DNA of 64,000 nt from an archaeon (GTDB lineage Archaea; Nanobdellota; Nanobdellia; Pacearchaeales; GW2011-AR1). A model generated the notes under the pieces. It was given only the letters and a program-made list of their open reading frames with translations. It searched no databases and was not told the DNA's origin. Numbering within the stretch: the first letter of the stretch is position 1; each line of letters opens with the position of its first letter. The stretch covers positions 94,020-158,019 of the forward strand of contig JAJRTJ010000001.1 of NCBI GenBank assembly GCA_024278335.1, given 5' to 3'. Of this stretch, positions 12,533 to 60,158 are shown piece after piece. Made by a program: the position numbers and the translations under genes.

Positions 12533-14245
12533 ATGGAACAAGTGTTTATCAATTTAGCAATTATTCTTCTTACTGCATTTATTGTAGCATATATTGCCAG
12601 ATTATTGAAACAGCCAATTATTATTGGGTATATTATTGCAGGAATATTGGTTGGTCCTTTTATTTGGGACTTTCATGCTTCAAGTGATTTAATAACAATT
12701 TTTTCTGAATTTGGAATTGCCTTCCTTTTGTTTATGGTAGGATTGCATTTAAATCCAAAAGTCATTAAAGAAATTGGCGGGTCTTCACTCTTAATTGGCT
12801 TGGGACAGATAATTTCAATTTTTATTTTAGGATTTTTTGTATCTTGGAAAATACTCTCTTATAACATGGTCTCTTCTATTTATGTAGGTCTTGTGCTTTC
12901 ATTTAGTAGCACAATTATTGTGATGAAATTGCTTTCTGACAAACAGCATTTTGATACTTTGTATGGAAAAATTGCAATTGGAGTTCTAATTGTTCAAGAC
13001 CTTGTTGCAGTCGGTGCTCTGATGGTTATCTCTTCCCTATCCAAGGGAGAACTGACTTTTGGAGATCTTGCACTTAAAAGCTTAATGTCGGGGATAGGTC
13101 TTTTAATAGTTTTATTTATACTTGGATTTTACTTTCTTCCAAAATTTACAAGAAATTTAGCTAAGTCCCAAGAATTATTGTTTTTATTTTCTGTTTGCTG
13201 GTGTTTTGTCATAGCAGCTGCTTTTATCCTTGCAGGATTTTCTTTGGAAATCGGAGCACTTGTTGCAGGGGTGGCTCTTTCAATCTCTCCTTATAGTGCA
13301 GAAATTAGCGCAAAAATAAAACCTCTTAGAGATTTTTTCCTAATTATCTTTTTTATTATTTTAGGACTAAATATTAATTTAACTAATTTTACAAATGCTA
13401 TCTGGGATGCAGTCATCTTATCGGCATTGGTTCTGATTTTTAAACCTCTGATTTTAATGTCCTTTATGGCACTTGTAGGATATACAAAAAGGACTAATTT
13501 CTTGCTTGGAACAACACTTGCCCAAATCTCTGAATTTTCTTTGATTGTTCTTACTCTTGGAGTTGTTATGGAGCATGTTGGAAAAGAGTTAGTGAGTGTA
13601 ATTACCTTGACAGCTTTAACCACAATAACAATTTCAACCTATGGCATTATTTATTCTGAAAAATTTTATAATTTAGTTAAAAATAAAATCACAATTTTTG
13701 AGAGAAAAAATATTAAAAAAATCAGCATCAAAAAGAAAAAATACAATGCAATCCTATTTGGCTACAATAGAATCGGGTTCAACATTTTAAGGTCACTTAA
13801 AGAATTAAAGAAAAAATATTTAGTTATAGATTATAATCCAGAAACAATCTCTTCTTTAGAAAAGTTTAGAGTCCCTTCTCTTTATGGAGATAGTTCTGAT
13901 TCAGATTTTTTAGAAGATTTGCCTCTTAATTCAATTGAGCTTGCTATTTCAACAATCCCTGATTTTGAAACAAACCAGCTCTTGATTGAAAAGATTAGAG
14001 AAGTAAATAAAAAAGCAATTATTGTTGCAAGAGCTCATCAAATTAGCGACGCTTTGGACTTATACAAAAAAGGAGCAACCTATGTTCTCACTCCTCATTT
14101 TTTAGGAGGGGAATATGTAGCAAAAATGGTTAGAGAATTAAAAACAAATAGAGGTAAATATAATGAAGAAAGGAAAAAGCATATGCAAACACTTTTAGAG
14201 AGAGGAAATAAAGGACAGGAGCACCCAGATATTGAGAGGGATTAA
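12533..14245 (+). CDS. CPA2 cation:proton antiporter (KefB/KefC-like) with C-terminal RCK/TrkA-N domain
   Basis: About 12 TM helices, FLLFMVGL, SSTIIVMKLL, QDL, then GYNRIG...VIDYNP...YGD. Strong SD (GAGGTG). Confidence 0.9.
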   Translation: MEQVFINLAIILLTAFIVAYIARLLKQPIIIGYIIAGILVGPFIWDFHASSDLITIFSEFGIAFLLFMVGLHLNPKVIKEIGGSSLLIGLGQIISIFILGFFVSWKILSYNMVSSIYVGLVLSFSSTIIVMKLLSDKQHFDTLYGKIAIGVLIVQDLVAVGALMVISSLSKGELTFGDLALKSLMSGIGLLIVLFILGFYFLPKFTRNLAKSQELLFLFSVCWCFVIAAAFILAGFSLEIGALVAGVALSISPYSAEISAKIKPLRDFFLIIFFIILGLNINLTNFTNAIWDAVILSALVLIFKPLILMSFMALVGYTKRTNFLLGTTLAQISEFSLIVLTLGVVMEHVGKELVSVITLTALTTITISTYGIIYSEKFYNLVKNKITIFERKNIKKISIKKKKYNAILFGYNRIGFNILRSLKELKKKYLVIDYNPETISSLEKFRVPSLYGDSSDSDFLEDLPLNSIELAISTIPDFETNQLLIEKIREVNKKAIIVARAHQISDALDLYKKGATYVLTPHFLGGEYVAKMVRELKTNRGKYNEERKKHMQTLLERGNKGQEHPDIERD

Positions 14246-14288
14246 AATGTGGGCATGAGAACACCCCCCCCCCAGAAATCAAAAGAAA

Positions 14289-14993
14289 TTAAACTTTTTC
14301 CTCTATGTTTTTTTCATTAATTTCTTGCTTTTCTTTTGTTTGGGTTTCATCAATATCTTCCCATCCAATTAAAGAAAATAAAAAATCAAAAAACCTCAGG
14401 ATAATTTCTAAACCAACAATAAACCCAAGATAGATTAATATTTTATCTATTAAAAGAGGAATTTCTCTAAAATTATTAATGATTCTTTCAAAATCAAAAA
14501 ATCCAGGGTTTAACATTGAAGCTGCTAATAGCATAAAAGGAAGCATTTTTGCCAAATCTTTTGCCAAATCTTCTCCTTTTCCAGGAATATATGAAGCAAG
14601 CCTTATAACTGAAACAATTGTAGCCGCAATAAGAAGAAGCGTTGCTATATTTGCTCCCTCACTTAACAATATTAGAAAAATAACAAATAACGAAAATCCC
14701 AAGAAAATCACTATTGGAGAAATAATAATATATTCAAGAAGATAAAACCCTCCTGTAATAAGCTTTGATAAAAAAGGATGTTCTGAGCGATTGTATTGAT
14801 TTAAATTTAATTCAATTAAATTCTTTTGCGCAATATATTTGTAAGCTTTCCATATAAAAACAGCATAAGCAAAAACCACTAAAACTAATAAAAAAAGATT
14901 AACTATTAATTGCATCCGTAATGGAAGAGATTCAAGGAATAAGTTGTATGCATCAATTGTCTGAGAAATAAATTCTGTAGCCACCTCTACCAT
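14289..14993 (-). CDS. Uncharacterised polytopic membrane protein
   Basis: 234 aa with several hydrophobic helices. Confidence 0.65.
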   Translation of the reverse strand: MVEVATEFISQTIDAYNLFLESLPLRMQLIVNLFLLVLVVFAYAVFIWKAYKYIAQKNLIELNLNQYNRSEHPFLSKLITGGFYLLEYIIISPIVIFLGFSLFVIFLILLSEGANIATLLLIAATIVSVIRLASYIPGKGEDLAKDLAKMLPFMLLAASMLNPGFFDFERIINNFREIPLLIDKILIYLGFIVGLEIILRFFDFLFSLIGWEDIDETQTKEKQEINEKNIEEKV

Positions 14994-17150: not shown

Positions 17151-17304
17151 AGGGAAGTGAGTGGAGAGGGGCTTAAAAAGACACTTATCAATTGTTTAAA
17201 ATTAATAAAGGGTTCAGTGCAGAAATAAAAAAACTATTCTTCCGATGACTTTGAATTTAGCCCCACATCCCAACGAGAATAAATAGAATGTAAAGCTCCA
17301 TAAA

Positions 17305-17376
17305 CGCCCACGCCGGGAGTTGAACCCGGGTTACGTCCGCGACAGGGACGTGTCATAGCCGTTAGACCACGTAGGC
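17305..17376 (-). tRNA. tRNA-Asp(GTC)
   Basis: GCCTACG/CGTGGGC acceptor, CGTCC-CTGTCGC-GGACG anticodon arm, CCGGG-TTCAACT-CCCGG T arm. Confidence 0.93.
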
Positions 17377-17428
17377 ACATTGCTTCGTGTTAATGCTCAG
17401 TAGAAACTTCGCATAGGCCACGTAGGCA
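17367..17428. repeat. 11-bp direct repeat of the tRNA-Asp 5' end (CCACGTAGGCA at 17367-17377 and 17418-17428)
   Basis: Exact match seen, offset 51 bp. Confidence 0.7.
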
Positions 17429-17567
17429 AATAACTGTGTTGATTTAGATGCCATTCCCAGTAGGCATAAATCAATAATTATCATTGCAGAATTTTGTTTA
17501 AAAGCTTTTCTTTTGAAAAAATTTGATTTATAATTAATTTTATAAATTTCCTTTTCTTTTTTATTCC

Positions 17568-33344: not shown

Positions 33345-33496
33345 CCCTCCATAGCTCAGTGGTTTAGAGCGCCTGGCTGTAGAATAGGGCGGATATTCCA
33401 TTATGTTCATGGAAATTAAATGAAGCCTGAGAAGCCAGTCCTGTTACTGCGTATGCAGTTCCCGGGAGATCCCCAGTTCGAATCTGGGTGGAGGGA
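33345..33496 (+). tRNA. tRNA-Tyr(GTA) with a 78-nt intron at 37/38 (33383-33460)
   Basis: CCCTCCA/TGGAGGG acceptor. Anticodon stem CCTGG/CCGGG. Bulge-helix-bulge: CTGT/GCAG helix, AG|A and TT|C bulges, ATA/TAT outer helix. Confidence 0.9.
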
Positions 33497-54822: not shown

Positions 54823-57270
54823 TCACTCTTTTTTTTCTGCTTCTTCAACAACTCTTACGACATCACTAACCCTATCCCCTGGTTGGAGTTTGACAATTCT
54901 AACTCCTTGTGCAGCACGGCCCATCACACGAATATTTTTCAATCCAGTTCTAATTACCATTCCTTTGGCAGTTGTAATAATAATGCTGTCTTTATCTGTA
55001 ACTGCCACTGTATTAACAACATTTCCTGTTTTCTAGGAAACCTTTAAATTAATAACTCCTTTTCCAGCACGAGCAGTTTTTCTATAATCTTCAACAGCAG
55101 TTCTTTTTCCATAGCCTTTTTCTGTAACAGTTAAAATATTTGCAGTCCCTAAAACTTCTAAACTCACAACTTCGTCATTTGGTTTTAGCTTTATTCCTGC
55201 CACACCATAACTTGCCCTGCCCATTGCCCGAACATCATCAGCATTAAACCTAATTGCCTGACCTTTTTTTGTCGCCAGAGTAACTTCCTGCCCTTCTTTA
55301 AGAACCTCTACTCCAATTAAATTATCAGAATGGTCTGCCGGAAGATTAATTGCCCGCACTCCTGAAGCACGAGGCTTTGAAAAATGACTTAATGCAATTT
55401 TCTTAACAATTCCTTTTTTAGTTGCCATAAATAAATAATCATCAAAAGATTTAACAGAGATTACACTTGTTACTTCTTCGTTCTTTAATCCAAGCAAATT
55501 AGTCAAAGCCCTTCCTTTGCTGTATCTTTCTGCTTCTGGAATATCATGCGCCTTAAGCCATAAAACTCTTCCCCGAGAAGTAAAAAACATTAAATAATCC
55601 AAAGTAGAACAGCTAATCAACTGCCTTGTAAAATCGTCGGTAGCAAGATTGCTTCCAATAACTCCTTTCCCTCCTCTCCTCTGTTGCCTATAAGATGAAA
55701 CATCCATTCTTTTAACATAACCTTTGTCAGTAATCGTTACAATAACGTCCTTTTTTTGCACAAGGTCTTTCTCAGAAATCTCATTAATTTTCTTTAAAAC
55801 CCGAGTCCTTCTTTCATCTCCATATTTATTCTTTAATTCCTTGACTTCTTTTACAATAATTTTAATAACTTCTTTAATATCTCCAAGAATATTGTCTAAT
55901 TCTTTAATTAACTTCTTCAATTCCTCTTCCTCTTTTTTCAACTTATCAACTTCAAGGGAAGTCAATTGCTGTAACCGGGTTTCCAAGACTGCTTCTGCCT
56001 GCCTTTGGCTTAACTTATATTTTTTCATTAAGCCTTCCATTGCTTCATTTTTAGTCTTGGATTTTTTAATCAAAGAAATAACAGCATCAATGTTTTTTAA
56101 AGCAATTAAAAGCCCTTCAACAAGCTCTTTTCTTTCTTTTGCTTTCTTTAATTCAAATTCAGTTCTTTTTGTAATAATTTTTTTTCTGTATTCAACATAT
56201 TCCTTCAAAACCTGCTTTAATCCAAGAACTTTTGGTTGTCCATTTACAAGAGCCAGAAAATTAACACTAAAAGAATCTTGAAGCCGGGTATATTTATACA
56301 GCGCATTTACAATTAAATCAGGATTTGCACCTTTTCTTAATTCAATTACAATTCTAATCTGGCCTTTAGAAGACTCGTCTCTCAAATCAGAAACGTCCCT
56401 AATTTTTTTATCCCTAACCAATACAGCTATTTGCTCAACCAAAGTAGACTTATTTACCATATAAGGTATTTCAGTAATAACAACTGCATCTTTTTTCTTA
56501 ATTGTCTCTATTTTAGTCTTTCCTCTTAAAATAAGCCTTCCTCTTCCAGTTTCATAAAGTTCTTCCATATCCCCAGAAACACTTCCTCCAGTAGGAAAAT
56601 CAGGACCAGTAATAATCTTTGTAAGTTCCTTTATTTCAATATTTGGTTTATTAACATAAGCAATAATCGCGTCGCAGACCTCTGTTAAATTATGGGGAGG
56701 AATGTTTGTTGCCATTCCTACTGCAATTCCTGTTGCTCCATTAAGCATTAAAGCGGGAAGTTTTCCTGGAAGCAGGCTCGGCTCTTTCAAGGAAGCATCA
56801 TAATTTGGGACAAATTTGACAGTCTCTTTATCAATATCTGCAAGCAACTCGCTTGAAATAGGCATTAATTTGGCTTCTGTATATCTCATTGCTGCGGCCT
56901 CATCTCCGTCAATAGAGCCAAAATTACCTTGTCCAAAAACAAGGGGATATCTTAATGAAAACTCTTGGGCCATACGCACCATTGTTTCATAAACTGCAGA
57001 ATCTCCATGAGGGTGATACTTACCAATCACATCTCCCACAATTCTTGCTGACTTTTTTGTAGAAGTATTTGGCTTTAATCCCATTGCCTGCATTGAATAA
57101 AGAATCCTTCTCTGAACTGGTTTCAAACCATCCTCAATTGCAGGAATTGCCCGAGAAACAATAACACTCATTGCATAATCCAAATAAGCTTTTTTCATTT
57201 CCTCAGACACTTCTGCTTGAATAATCCCTTTCTCTATCTCATTAATTTTGTCTGTTTCTGACGGAGTCAT
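54823..57270 (-). CDS. gyrA: DNA gyrase subunit A, interrupted by one in-frame TAG at 55033-55035
   Basis: [20 protein letters not shown], GyrA-box QRRGGKG. The final blade (...[12 protein letters not shown]) continues in frame after the TAG. Confidence 0.95.
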
Positions 57271-57581
57271 GCTATTTCTTCTCCTTTTTTATCTAAATAT
57301 TCCATAAGCTCGTCTTCTGTGAATTCTTTTTTAACAATATCGGCCCCTTTCCATTTGCATTTATGGCACTCCCACTCTTCTCCCCCTCCTATTTCAGAAT
57401 CTTTTCCACTTAAAACAACCCCCACATCATCACTCCCACATTTTGGACATTCCCTGATTGTAAATGTTTTGCCTTTTTTCTTTTTTCGCACTTTTTTGCC
57501 AGTAGCCTTAGCATATTCTTCAGGAGAATCATATCCTTCCCTTATCCAATCTGGTGTTGATAATTTTGATTTCTTCGCCAT
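57267..57581 (-). CDS. Zinc-ribbon protein
   Basis: CPKCGS...WECHKC, with ATGA coupling to gyrA. Confidence 0.7.
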
Positions 57582-57582
57582 T

Positions 57583-58194
57583 TTATAACTTACCCTTTAA
57601 TTCTTTTTTAAATCTTTCAATAAACTGCTCTGCAAAATCATATCTTGCTTTAGCAAGCTCTTGAGCTTTTTTTGTATTAAAATTTTCTGGATTAACTTTT
57701 TTATTTCTCTCTTCAATGTATTTTATTACACTTTCTCCCTCTTCATCATAAAAAGGATGATTATACAAATATGCTGAAGAAAAAGCTCTTGCAATTAATA
57801 TTGCTCCAAGGGAGTCAAGGCGGTCTGCATCTTGAAGAATTTTCGCTTCTTTGGACTCTGCTTTTAATCCCTTGCTAAGACGATGAGTTCTTATTGCGTC
57901 TGTTATTATCTTAATTTTCTCTTCAGAAATATCTTCAAATTCTTTTAAAATTTCTTCAGCCATTTTAGCCCCTTCCTCTGCATGGCATGTTGTCTCATTA
58001 TTCGCTTCTTTTATCCTTGCAATATCATGTAAGAGCGCTGCTATTTTGATTGCATCAATATCCCCTCCTTCACTATCTGCAATTTCAACAGCATTGTTTA
58101 ATACCCTCTCAGTATGCCCAAATTCATGGCTTTCTCCAGTTTTAAAGTAAGGAAGTATTCTTTCTTTTAATAAAATTAAAAAATCTTCTTTCAT
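57583..58194 (-). CDS. HD-domain phosphohydrolase
   Basis: HEFGHTERV, AALLHDI, HA, H, LQDADRLD. Confidence 0.9.
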   Translation of the reverse strand: MKEDFLILLKERILPYFKTGESHEFGHTERVLNNAVEIADSEGGDIDAIKIAALLHDIARIKEANNETTCHAEEGAKMAEEILKEFEDISEEKIKIITDAIRTHRLSKGLKAESKEAKILQDADRLDSLGAILIARAFSSAYLYNHPFYDEEGESVIKYIEERNKKVNPENFNTKKAQELAKARYDFAEQFIERFKKELKGKL

Positions 58195-58195
58195 T

Positions 58196-58289
58196 TTACA
58201 CGTCTAAATCTGCCTCCCTGGTTTGGCTCATCAGAGACGAGCTAGTGGCGGCAAATCGAGATTCTCTACACATCGAGATTTGCCTCCCG
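58196..58289 (-). repeat. Recoded duplication of the gyrB C-terminal codons (REANLDV* / READLDV*)
   Basis: 58266-58289 versus 58196-58219, offset 70, 18/24 nt identical, 6/7 aa identical. Confidence 0.8.
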
Positions 58290-60158
58290 AGCATTTTCTG
58301 CAATAAACTCTTTTCTGCCAGCAACATCACTTCCCATAAGCATAGTAAATACCTGGTCTGCCTCTACTGCATCTTCAACATGAATCTTTTTTAACTTTCT
58401 TGTTTTAGGATTCATTGTTGTTTCCCAAAGCTGAGAAGCACTCATCTCTCCCAACCCCTTGAATCTTGTAACATTTGGGTTGGCAACTCCCTTAGTTAAT
58501 TCCTTTAATTCCTCCTCGCTGTAAACATAGTGGTCAGTTTTTTTCCTGACTCTAAACAAAGGAGGCATTGCTCCATAAACATATCCTTTTTCAACAAGCT
58601 CGGGCATAAACCTGTAAAAAAAAGTTAAAAGAAGTGTCTTAATATGCCCCCCATCAACATCTGCATCAGTCATAATAATAATTTTATTGTATCTTAATTT
58701 ATCTATATTAAATTCATCTCCAACTCCGGTCCCAATTGCAGTTATTAAATTAGCAATTTCTTCAGACGAAAGAGCCTTGGCAGGATTTACTTTTTCAACA
58801 TTCAAAATTTTTCCTCTTAAGGGAAGAATGGCCTGAGTTTCCCGATTTCGCGCAGTTTTTGCAGAACCACCTGCTGAATTACCTTCTACAATATAAAGCT
58901 CAGTATTTTCAGATTTTTTGCTTGAGCAGTCAGCCAACTTTCCTGGAAGCCCCCCAACACCAAAAGCATTTTTTCTCCTAACCAAATCTTTTGCCTTTTT
59001 AGCAGCTAATCGCGCTTTAGCAGAATCCATTGCCTTAGCAACAATTTTCTTTGCAGCAGCAGGGTTTTCTTCTAAATATTCTGACAATGCAATTGAACAC
59101 GCAGAATCAACATATCCTTTAATCTCAGAATTTCCCAGTTTTGTCTTAGTCTGCCCTTCAAACTGAGGATTGGCCAGCTTAATGCTGATAACTGCAGTAA
59201 CCCCTTCCCGAACATCGTCTCCAAGCAAAGTTCCGCTTTTCAAAGTTCCTTTTTTCTTAGCATAATCATTCACTGCACGAGTCAAAGCAGTTCTAAAACC
59301 AGTAACATGAGTTCCCCCTTCAACAGTATTAATTGTATTAACAAAACCAAAAATATTTTCTTGATATGCACTTGTATACTGAAATGCAATTTCTATCATT
59401 ACTCCTTCAACCTCTCTCTTGAAATAAAAAGGCTTATGCAATGGCTCCCTTGACTTATTCAACCATTTTACAAAATCCACCAAACCTCCTGCAGCAAAAA
59501 ATTCTTCTTTCTTGTTTGGCTTATCTTTTCTTTTATCTTCAAGAAAAATTCTTAGTCCAGCATTTAAAAAAGTAGTCTCCCTAAACCGAGTCTCTAAAAC
59601 TTTATAATCAAAAACCAACGTAGAAAAAATTTCTGGGTCAGGATAAAAAGTAATTTTAGTCCCACTTTCCTTAGTTTTCCCAACTTCTTTAAGTTTAGTC
59701 AAAGGCTTTCCTCTTGAATATTCTTGTTTGTAAATCTTTCCCCCTCTTTTAATTTCAAGAATTAATTTTTCTGAAAGGGCATTTACACAAGAAACCCCTA
59801 CACCATGAAGCCCTCCTGAAATTGCATAAGACTTGCTGTCAAATTTTCCTCCTGCATGAAGTTTTGTTAATGCAACCTCGCAGGCAGGAATTTTAAACTG
59901 AGGATGCTTGTCAACAGGAATCCCCCGCCCATTATCTTCAATTGTAATAGAACCATCTTCATTCAAAGTTACAAAAATCTTGTCGCAATATCCCGCCATT
60001 GCCTCATCAACAGCATTATCAACAACTTCCCAGACAAGATGATGAAGCCCTTCCTTTGAGGTGCTTCCAATATACATTGCAGGCCTCATTCTCACCCCTT
60101 CAAGACCTTCTAAAACCTTAATTGCCTTTGCGCCATAATCACTTTTTTTATCTGCCAT
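58266..60158 (-). CDS. gyrB: DNA gyrase subunit B
   Basis: EVVDNAVDE, DNGRGIP, LHAGGKF, GGLHGVG, IVEGNSAGGS, PLRGKILN, MTDADVDG, KGLGEM. Confidence 0.96.
   Translation of the reverse strand: MADKKSDYGAKAIKVLEGLEGVRMRPAMYIGSTSKEGLHHLVWEVVDNAVDEAMAGYCDKIFVTLNEDGSITIEDNGRGIPVDKHPQFKIPACEVALTKLHAGGKFDSKSYAISGGLHGVGVSCVNALSEKLILEIKRGGKIYKQEYSRGKPLTKLKEVGKTKESGTKITFYPDPEIFSTLVFDYKVLETRFRETTFLNAGLRIFLEDKRKDKPNKKEEFFAAGGLVDFVKWLNKSREPLHKPFYFKREVEGVMIEIAFQYTSAYQENIFGFVNTINTVEGGTHVTGFRTALTRAVNDYAKKKGTLKSGTLLGDDVREGVTAVISIKLANPQFEGQTKTKLGNSEIKGYVDSACSIALSEYLEENPAAAKKIVAKAMDSAKARLAAKKAKDLVRRKNAFGVGGLPGKLADCSSKKSENTELYIVEGNSAGGSAKTARNRETQAILPLRGKILNVEKVNPAKALSSEEIANLITAIGTGVGDEFNIDKLRYNKIIIMTDADVDGGHIKTLLLTFFYRFMPELVEKGYVYGAMPPLFRVRKKTDHYVYSEEELKELTKGVANPNVTRFKGLGEMSASQLWETTMNPKTRKLKKIHVEDAVEADQVFTMLMGSDVAGRKEFIAENAREANLDV

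Follow-up and report, generated by a model that had tools for sequence, protein, structure and literature searches.

The window is the whole stretch of archaeal DNA analysed here, 64,000 nucleotides long (contig JAJRTJ010000001.1 of assembly GCA_024278335.1, positions 94,020 to 158,019), and comes from a metagenome-assembled Pacearchaeales genome of 575 kb that is divided between 4 contigs and is 83% complete. Alongside eIF2-gamma and aIF5B-type genes and an intron-bearing tRNA, the window contains an operon in which gyrB is followed by an HD-domain gene, a 104-aa zinc-ribbon ORF and gyrA. By translation, gyrB (58266–60158, minus strand) encodes 630 amino acids ending in ...AENAREANLDV, and the HD-domain gene downstream (57583–58194, minus strand), which matches Pfam family PF01966, encodes 203 amino acids from an ATG at 58194. 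Relatives of gyrB are 62–77% identical over the full length, the nearest being 73–77% identical, so the genome is without a close relative. Homologues of the HD protein are at best 64% identical, and the nearest named ones are labelled Pacearchaeota or Nanoarchaeota; an exact look-up of this protein returned no record, and the homologue search returned no population-level variants.

A preliminary description of this DNA had claimed that gyrB ends twice, with a period of 70 nt and with the second ending 1 nt before the HD ATG, and the sequence of the minus strand bears this out. The first copy (X1) consists of the last seven gyrB codons and the stop codon in use (CGG GAG GCA AAT CTC GAT GTG TAG, CGGGAGGCAAATCTCGATGTGTAG; 58289–58266, minus strand), and is followed by a 46-nt spacer (AGAATCTCGATTTGCCGCCACTAGCTCGTCTCTGATGAGCCAAACC; 58265–58220, minus strand) and by the second copy (X2; AGG GAG GCA GAT TTA GAC GTG TAA, AGGGAGGCAGATTTAGACGTGTAA; 58219–58196, minus strand), which abuts the HD gene start with a single A between its stop codon and the ATG. 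The repeat finder reports the two copies as a 22-nt direct repeat with a period of 70 and 82% identity. They differ at 6 of 24 nt, and their longest identical stretch is the 8-nt GGGAGGCA. Five of the six differences are synonymous, counting the stop codon, and the sixth changes Asn to Asp, as expected from the earlier statement that the differences are almost all synonymous. Codon usage in this genome upholds the distinction drawn there between rare codons in X1 and host-like codons in X2: CGG makes up 4% of Arg codons, CTC 4.8% of Leu codons and TAG 11% of stops, while the X2 equivalents AGG, TTA and TAA stand at 21%, 39% and 68% respectively. The CTC of X1 is the sole CTC of gyrB.

The spacer forms a local G+C peak (~50%, compared with 32% for the genome) and takes part in two hairpins, both of which the preliminary description had noted. 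Its first part, ATCTCGATTTGCCGCC (58247–58262, minus strand), is complementary to X1, with which it forms a hairpin with TAG in the loop, and also to X2. The repeat finder places the inverted repeat at 58247–58262 and 58272–58287, with 16 nt that are 81% complementary around a 9-nt loop containing the used TAG, and fold analysis and the repeat finder both indicate that this part of the spacer can pair alternatively with X1 or X2. In two related genomes, G206 and G122, the spacer complement tracks each genome's own third codon. The same part overlaps a third direct copy of the tail, an incomplete one at the spacer start (AATCTCGATTTG, 58263–58252, corresponding to AATCTCGATGTG in X1), which the preliminary description had missed. 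The later part of the spacer is occupied by a 27-nt hairpin module, CACTAGCTCGTCTCTGATGAGCCAAAC (58221–58247, minus strand), which has BLAST matches at other gene ends and contains the stem-loop GCTCGTC-TCT-GATGAGC (58242–58226, minus strand), present as stated in the preliminary description. The local fold energy is ordinary (z = −1.6). The only inverted repeats are the X1–spacer hairpin, detected by the repeat finder, and the internal 7-bp hairpin, read from the sequence, so that the insert has none at its ends; no tRNA or tRNA half was found at the locus. A known RNA or ribozyme was considered and rejected: the spacer contains the hammerhead-like CUGAUGAG, but no Rfam family matched, the best E value of the Rfam 15 covariance models against the locus being 0.13, far under the gathering score.

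Double gyrB ends recur among relatives. The strict two-copy pattern, defined as two E-A-x-L-D-[IVL]-stop units lying 5–150 nt apart, is present at the gyrB end in 17 of 401 genomes of the order, spread over 14 genera, and gave 0 matches in a reversed control; all strict matches follow a recognisable gyrB 3' end except that in G020, whose repeats lie 30 nt from a contig end. In a first set of 25 relatives' gyrB ends, a clear duplicate was seen only in this genome and in G007, whose spacer and downstream gene both differ from those found here. In one genus for which many genomes are available, two or three copies are present at 7 of 33 gyrB ends, with at least three types of spacer, and the sister genomes G206 and G348 bear different spacers. 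Tandem arrays also occur, made of identical units in G020 and G076, and of three copies with two different spacers in G202 and G516. One spacer type is 93–95% identical between non-sister genomes whose gyrB genes are ~73% identical, which indicates recent horizontal movement or strong constraint of the spacer sequence. The gyrB end is a family-wide hotspot, and offers more than 20 natural variants for study.

Single-copy junctions in relatives show what the undivided arrangement looks like. No more than 10 nt separate the gyrB stop from the next ATG in 38 of 49 single-copy relatives, which agrees with the earlier assignment of X2 to the ancestral junction, and the single gyrB–HD junction that had been predicted is seen in the relative L365 (...VDI-TAA-G-ATG-HD), whose HD gene is 61% identical to the HD protein of this genome. 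Two-copy relatives lacking spacer homologues elsewhere had been named as evidence that would speak against an inserted element; the two-copy relatives are instead patchily distributed, with varied spacers, and spacer homologues exist. A simple tandem duplication of the junction was rejected, the spacer being unlike the HD gene start. The source is a metagenome-assembled genome and the differences between copies are mostly synonymous, like those of strain alleles, so an assembler might have joined two strain variants of the gyrB end in tandem; however, the 46-nt spacer copies neither flank, the two copies have no identical stretch above 8 nt that could serve an assembler as a joining point, and over 20 independent assemblies have the same architecture, which also occurs at other loci. 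Such an artefact is barely credible.

The distribution of differences within the copies bears on which of them is native. Among 20 pairs, the codons for Glu, Ala and x differ between X1 and X2 in 5, 10 and 7 cases, compared with 16 for Leu, 12 for Asp, 15 for Ile/Val and 11 for the stop, so that the distal codons have diverged to about the level expected of unrelated tails. Because the distal codons have diverged and the proximal ones less so, the pattern fits a junction near codon 3 or 4, which would make the distal part of X1 a part of the insert. Comparison of G206 with its sister G348 shows gyrB to be the same up to codon 3, after which the distal X1 of G206 (CTCGACATTTAA) is the outlier and the other three distal sequences cluster. 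The rare codon CTC is enriched in X1 across several genomes. X2 copies sometimes alter residues that are invariant in real gyrB tails (Ala to Ser in G301, Leu to Ser in G318), and for this reason selection on X2 looks relaxed. The direction drawn from these comparisons is that X1 was probably imported and that X2 is probably native.

Several observations favour a different origin, in which a MITE-like hairpin element at the gyrB–HD junction duplicated a target of ~24 nt on the spot, and both copies then diverged under selection at the peptide level, with X2 translated as the end of a small ORF. Most pairs of copies are diverged; identical pairs occur in G076, G020 and L079 and at a locus of contig C2 of this genome, as on-the-spot duplication would give. 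Despite strong synonymous divergence, X1 and X2 have lineage-specific residues in common (Ala/Ala in G171 and G220, Lys/Lys in G122, Glu/Glu in G111 and Thr/Thr in G516), which is awkward for a distant donor and would require either entry guided by homology or selection acting on both copies. In G341 and G409 each genome's two copies resemble one another more closely than orthologous copies do across genomes, in G007 and G045 the duplicated stretch extends into the start of the next gene, and X2 lies in an ATG-initiated open frame at most two-copy loci (see below). The pair in G154, whose longest identical stretch is 4 nt, has no recognisable core and also sits poorly with an insert that enters at conserved codons. 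Local duplication is nevertheless unlikely as the general explanation. The duplicates range in length from about 9 to more than 40 nt across loci, unlike the fixed target-site duplication of a transposase, and terminal inverted repeats are absent; the unequal divergence of distal and proximal codons, the enrichment of CTC in X1 and the weaker constraint on X2 all run counter to it, and tRNA ends are duplicated as well, where translation cannot constrain the copies. From the shared lineage-specific residues and the identical pairs it follows that an insert appears to depend on proximal-codon homology for its entry, or that some inserts are local duplications.

A feature that the preliminary description did not foresee is a small reading frame through the spacer, here called the relay ORF. 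Its ATG (58273–58271, minus strand) lies inside GAT GTG TAG, with the GGAGG of X1 9 nt upstream, and opens a frame of 25 codons (MCRESRFAATSSSLMSQTREADLDV; 58196–58273, minus strand) in the +1 frame, which is open throughout and ends at the X2 stop, 1 nt before the HD ATG. An ATG positioned between −10 and +17 nt of the X1 stop, in the frame of X2 and open to the X2 stop, is present at 17 of the 21 two-copy gyrB loci, compared with 0 and 1 for the other frames. The spacer is stop-free in the X2 frame at 18 of the 21 loci, where the other frames give 10 and 7 and shuffled spacers 0.47. In-frame small ORFs are therefore in strong excess. The relay ATGs arise in various ways according to locus (within the tail, as ATATGA at the stop, by duplication of the next gene's start or within the hairpin), and the N-terminal part of the ORF varies even where the spacers are homologous, as in MLHPSVAKS, MLRPSMAKS and MLCPGVAKS. 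Because of this variety of origins and lack of conservation, selection is read as acting on a ribosome path that ends at the old stop, and not on a particular peptide. The relay ORF probably keeps the next gene translationally coupled, a function suggested by its placement; there is a low probability that the peptide itself mimics the GyrB tail.

A selected device would give the arrangement a more specific role, in which the structure and small ORF regulate the coupling of gyrB to the next gene, or a product of 17–26 aa bearing the GyrB tail regulates gyrase at the GyrA docking site. The strongly non-random small ORF, the fact that its last 6–7 residues copy the universally conserved GyrB tail, the pairing of the first spacer part with X1 or X2 and the hotspot at the gyrB end would all suit such a device, but the same duplication affects many unrelated genes and tRNAs, its distribution is patchy with spacers that are non-homologous between types, the N-terminal part of the ORF is unconserved and X2 shows signs of decay. 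A regulatory device of this kind is improbable.

The position of the used stop codon in a hairpin loop also raises the question of recoding or RNA removal, in which the insert would be bypassed by ribosomes or excised as a bulge-helix-bulge intron, with both copies serving as the gyrB end. The bypass cassette of phage T4 gene 60 and the 'byp' elements of Magnusiomyces mitochondria are hairpin inserts of 27–55 nt, richer in GC than their surroundings, that are tolerated by translation. The insert described here shares with them its small size, raised GC content and hairpin structure, its location in a topoisomerase gene and the presence of a stop codon within a stem-loop; the bypass-type match consists of GTG-TAG and GTG-TAA with the stop in the loop, and GGAGG precedes X2. 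It differs from them in that gyrB ends before the insert and is complete without recoding, so that bypass is unneeded, and in that a small ORF runs across it. The last sense codons of the two copies are mismatched at most other two-copy loci, and the frame relation between X1 and X2 varies between loci (0, +1 or +2); ribosomal bypass was rejected, the take-off and landing codons not being conserved among two-copy loci. Archaeal bulge-helix-bulge introns, which transpose between tRNA genes, are likewise small and structured and accompany tRNA genes in archaea, DPANN included. Here, in contrast, the insert follows a complete reading frame and the motif is absent at the locus: scans for two 3-nt bulges and a 4-bp helix gave 0 matches under strict settings and 10 under relaxed settings, compared with 10.6 for shuffled sequence, and an intron of this type was rejected as not above chance. 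With the lack of an Rfam match, recoding or RNA removal is very improbable.

Duplicated gene ends extend beyond gyrB, which again had not been foreseen. In this genome, 8 of 810 ORFs have a downstream duplicate of their tail (at most 6 mismatches to the last 24 nt, within 200 nt downstream), and the reversed-tail control gave 1. The proposed search for the spacer gave a divided answer: the 46-nt spacer has no second copy within this genome, but the 27-nt module within it recurs, matching in G289, G449 and G294, which belong to three other genera, in a BLAST search of 400 family genomes. In all three genomes the module (CACTAGCTCGTCT..GAGCCAAAC) sits between the new and old ends of other genes; the new ends read into the module (..Ser-His-TAG), and a recoded copy of 8–20 codons follows directly after. 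This gives the earlier idea of an inserted element with a recoded terminus a counterpart at other genes; its remaining part, the import of X1 as opposed to a local duplication, we infer. In G289 and G449 the module lies in orthologous genes, and the new end in one genome is similar to the old end in the other (KEREAK.KRLIEI and KERV.KI.RLIE); because new and old ends cross-match in this manner, the sequences suggest that gene ends have been exchanged between lineages. Modules related to the 27-nt module are also contained in the gyrB spacers of G301 and G516.

The 20-nt core of the module (CGTCTCT.ATGAGCCAA) also occurs in frame near the N-terminus of pilin-like genes at L355 (in G274) and L357 (in G409), where it encodes ..SLMSQ(T/R)KG... 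The relay ORF peptide contains SSSLMSQTR, the same motif as the module peptide of the pilin-like genes. The consensus fold of the hairpin-module family is weak (−3.5 kcal/mol) and is not relied on. Collections of genome and metagenome contigs scanned with GCTCGTCNNNGATGAGCCAA gave only chance matches, in ABC-transporter Walker B coding sequence.

At four other loci of this genome, outside the window, a different palindrome of 28 nt, GACGCAAATCCACGCAGTGATTTGCATA, lies directly before the displaced copy (C4:40844-40867, C2:233546-233569, C2:239113-239136 and C2:66414-66437). Three of these are protein-gene ends, with the pairs KGLAENQ*/KGLAENQ*, AIEIVCR*/CIEIVTR* and KGAYS*/REAYS*, the last of which encodes its Ser by TCA in one copy but by AGT in the other, and the fourth is the 5' end of a tRNA gene. 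The palindrome is present in 21 of 301 family genomes with 1–7 copies each, this genome having 5, and the control gave 0; positions 8 and 16 of its stem covary as C-G, A-T or G-C. Of the copies sampled, roughly half have the sequence after them duplicated close by, and the duplicate can be a tRNA 3' end. Two hairpin families, the 27-nt module and this palindrome, are common to several loci.

The window itself holds a copy of the palindrome, TAAATCAACACAGTTATTTGCCTA (17423–17446, minus strand), near the tRNA-Asp gene (17304–17377, minus strand). Joined to this copy is a second tRNA-Asp 5' end, GCCTACGTGGCCTA, and the genuine end, GCCTACGTGGTCTA, lies 37 nt further on; a further GCCTAC upstream stands at promoter distance from a TATA-like box. 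Elsewhere in the window (14221–14291, plus strand), a 571-aa ORF ends in HPDIERD-TAA and is followed by AATGTGGGCATGAGAACACCCCC and, 23 nt downstream, by a diverged second tail, PPEIKRN-TAA.

The reuse of these modules also bears on whether a mobile element is needed at all. A recombination scar would arise if DNA of a related lineage replaced the 3' part of gyrB through one homologous and one illegitimate crossover, leaving the resident end behind. Such a scar would account for the foreign-looking codons of X1 and for the cross pattern of new and old ends in G289 and G449. The same hairpin modules are found, however, at unrelated genes in several genera, over 20 genomes have the junction at the same codons, and tandem arrays are present in G020, G076, G202 and G516; since random illegitimate joins would not yield recurrent modules, a fixed junction and arrays, a scar is disfavoured and has only a slight chance of being correct.

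On balance, the evidence tilts somewhat towards a miniature mobile insert having brought a spare gyrB terminus to this locus and displaced the original end downstream. The insert, of ~70 nt at the gyrB–HD junction, is of a kind recurrent at gene termini in this Pacearchaeota-type DPANN family, and would have three components: a replacement for the last few gyrB codons and the stop (the distal part of X1), a stretch complementary to this replacement that places the new stop in a hairpin loop, and the 27-nt hairpin module present at other gene ends in other genomes. The proposed mode of entry is a recombination event inside the conserved Glu-Ala-x codons near the end of gyrB, which would account for the gene staying intact. 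The original last codons and stop (X2) would have been pushed 70 nt downstream, still 1 nt before the next ATG. The ATG over the new stop opens the 25-codon frame through the insert to the old stop and most likely hands ribosomes to the HD gene, so that coupling would be unbroken by the insert. Besides the residues shared by X1 and X2, the identical pairs and the coreless pair of G154, two further findings weigh against this insert: the 46-nt spacer is unique in this genome, and the two tyrosine recombinases of the genome are both on other contigs, no recombinase or transposase being linked to the insert.

The closest parallels are integrative elements that enter the 3' ends of genes and restore their target, such as e14 and phage 21 in the icd gene of E. 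coli, and the SSV- and pNOB8-type elements of archaeal tRNA genes. As with these elements, the target end is duplicated around the insert, the copy on the insert side completes the gene with a different spelling and an orphan end is left downstream; tRNA genes and the 3' ends of protein genes both serve as targets, tandem arrays form at one site, and empty sites are found in relatives, here as 49 single-copy gyrB ends that include a gyrB–HD junction. Unlike them, the inserts are of ~50–130 nt (70 nt at gyrB, with only a 25-codon ORF) and have no linked integrase, the duplicated length varies, and one site is used by several hairpin modules that are unrelated to one another. MITEs and palindromic repeats, among which the palindromic elements of Rickettsia insert in frame into genes, are similarly very short, structured and protein-less and are spread over many genes of small genomes, and the in-frame module core of the pilin-like genes is a further likeness. 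The insert differs from them in lacking terminal inverted repeats and a target duplication of fixed length, and in its position at gene termini with a recoded spare end; unlike a MITE, its spacer is single-copy in this genome and its hairpin module recurs only in other genomes. The insert works like a miniature gene-end replacement of the attachment-site type, and falls outside both integrase elements and classical MITEs.

A broader proposal, which is tentative and doubtful as a whole, is that DPANN archaea host undescribed, protein-less mobile cassettes of less than ~130 nt. Such cassettes would target the conserved last codons of essential genes, or tRNA ends, via short homology or base pairing, and would bring a recoded spare terminus and, in operons, a relay ORF, with gyrB as a hotspot and a relay micropeptide carrying the GyrB tail. 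No description of such inserts was found in the literature searched. If the proposal is true, the essential genes of highly reduced archaeal genomes are routinely invaded at their last codons by insertion modules smaller than any seen so far, which measure tens of bases and contain no gene, and the invasion is harmless because the module supplies a spare gene end. This would constitute a new route for short sequences to pass between lineages, and a source of annotation and assembly puzzles such as orphan gene ends and apparent duplications. The relay ORF would further imply selection for coupling across inserts, and the rules of coupling in DPANN archaea would become testable.

Some minor observations concern the surrounding genes. 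The 104-aa ORF between the HD gene and gyrA (57267–57581, minus strand) has a weak match to the Cas12f/TnpB-like zinc-ribbon (TNB) domain, at E = 4.6e-4 and below the cut-off, and may be the remnant of an IS200/IS605-type gene. A tRNA gene match at 33345–33496 (plus strand) spans 152 nt, which implies a long intron, and the intron sequence is unrelated to the hairpin modules. In G014, G012, G027, G030, G018, G011, G040 and G009, the gyrB match is split near residue 432 within open frames of 794–1578 aa (loci L026–L031 cover the first five of these genomes), which points to at least one intein at about residue 432 of gyrB in many relatives; the gyrB of this genome is free of it. The metagenome contigs at L363 and L364 differ by 1 nt in a T run that splits the same gyrB into two called genes, and this split is probably a sequencing or assembly error.
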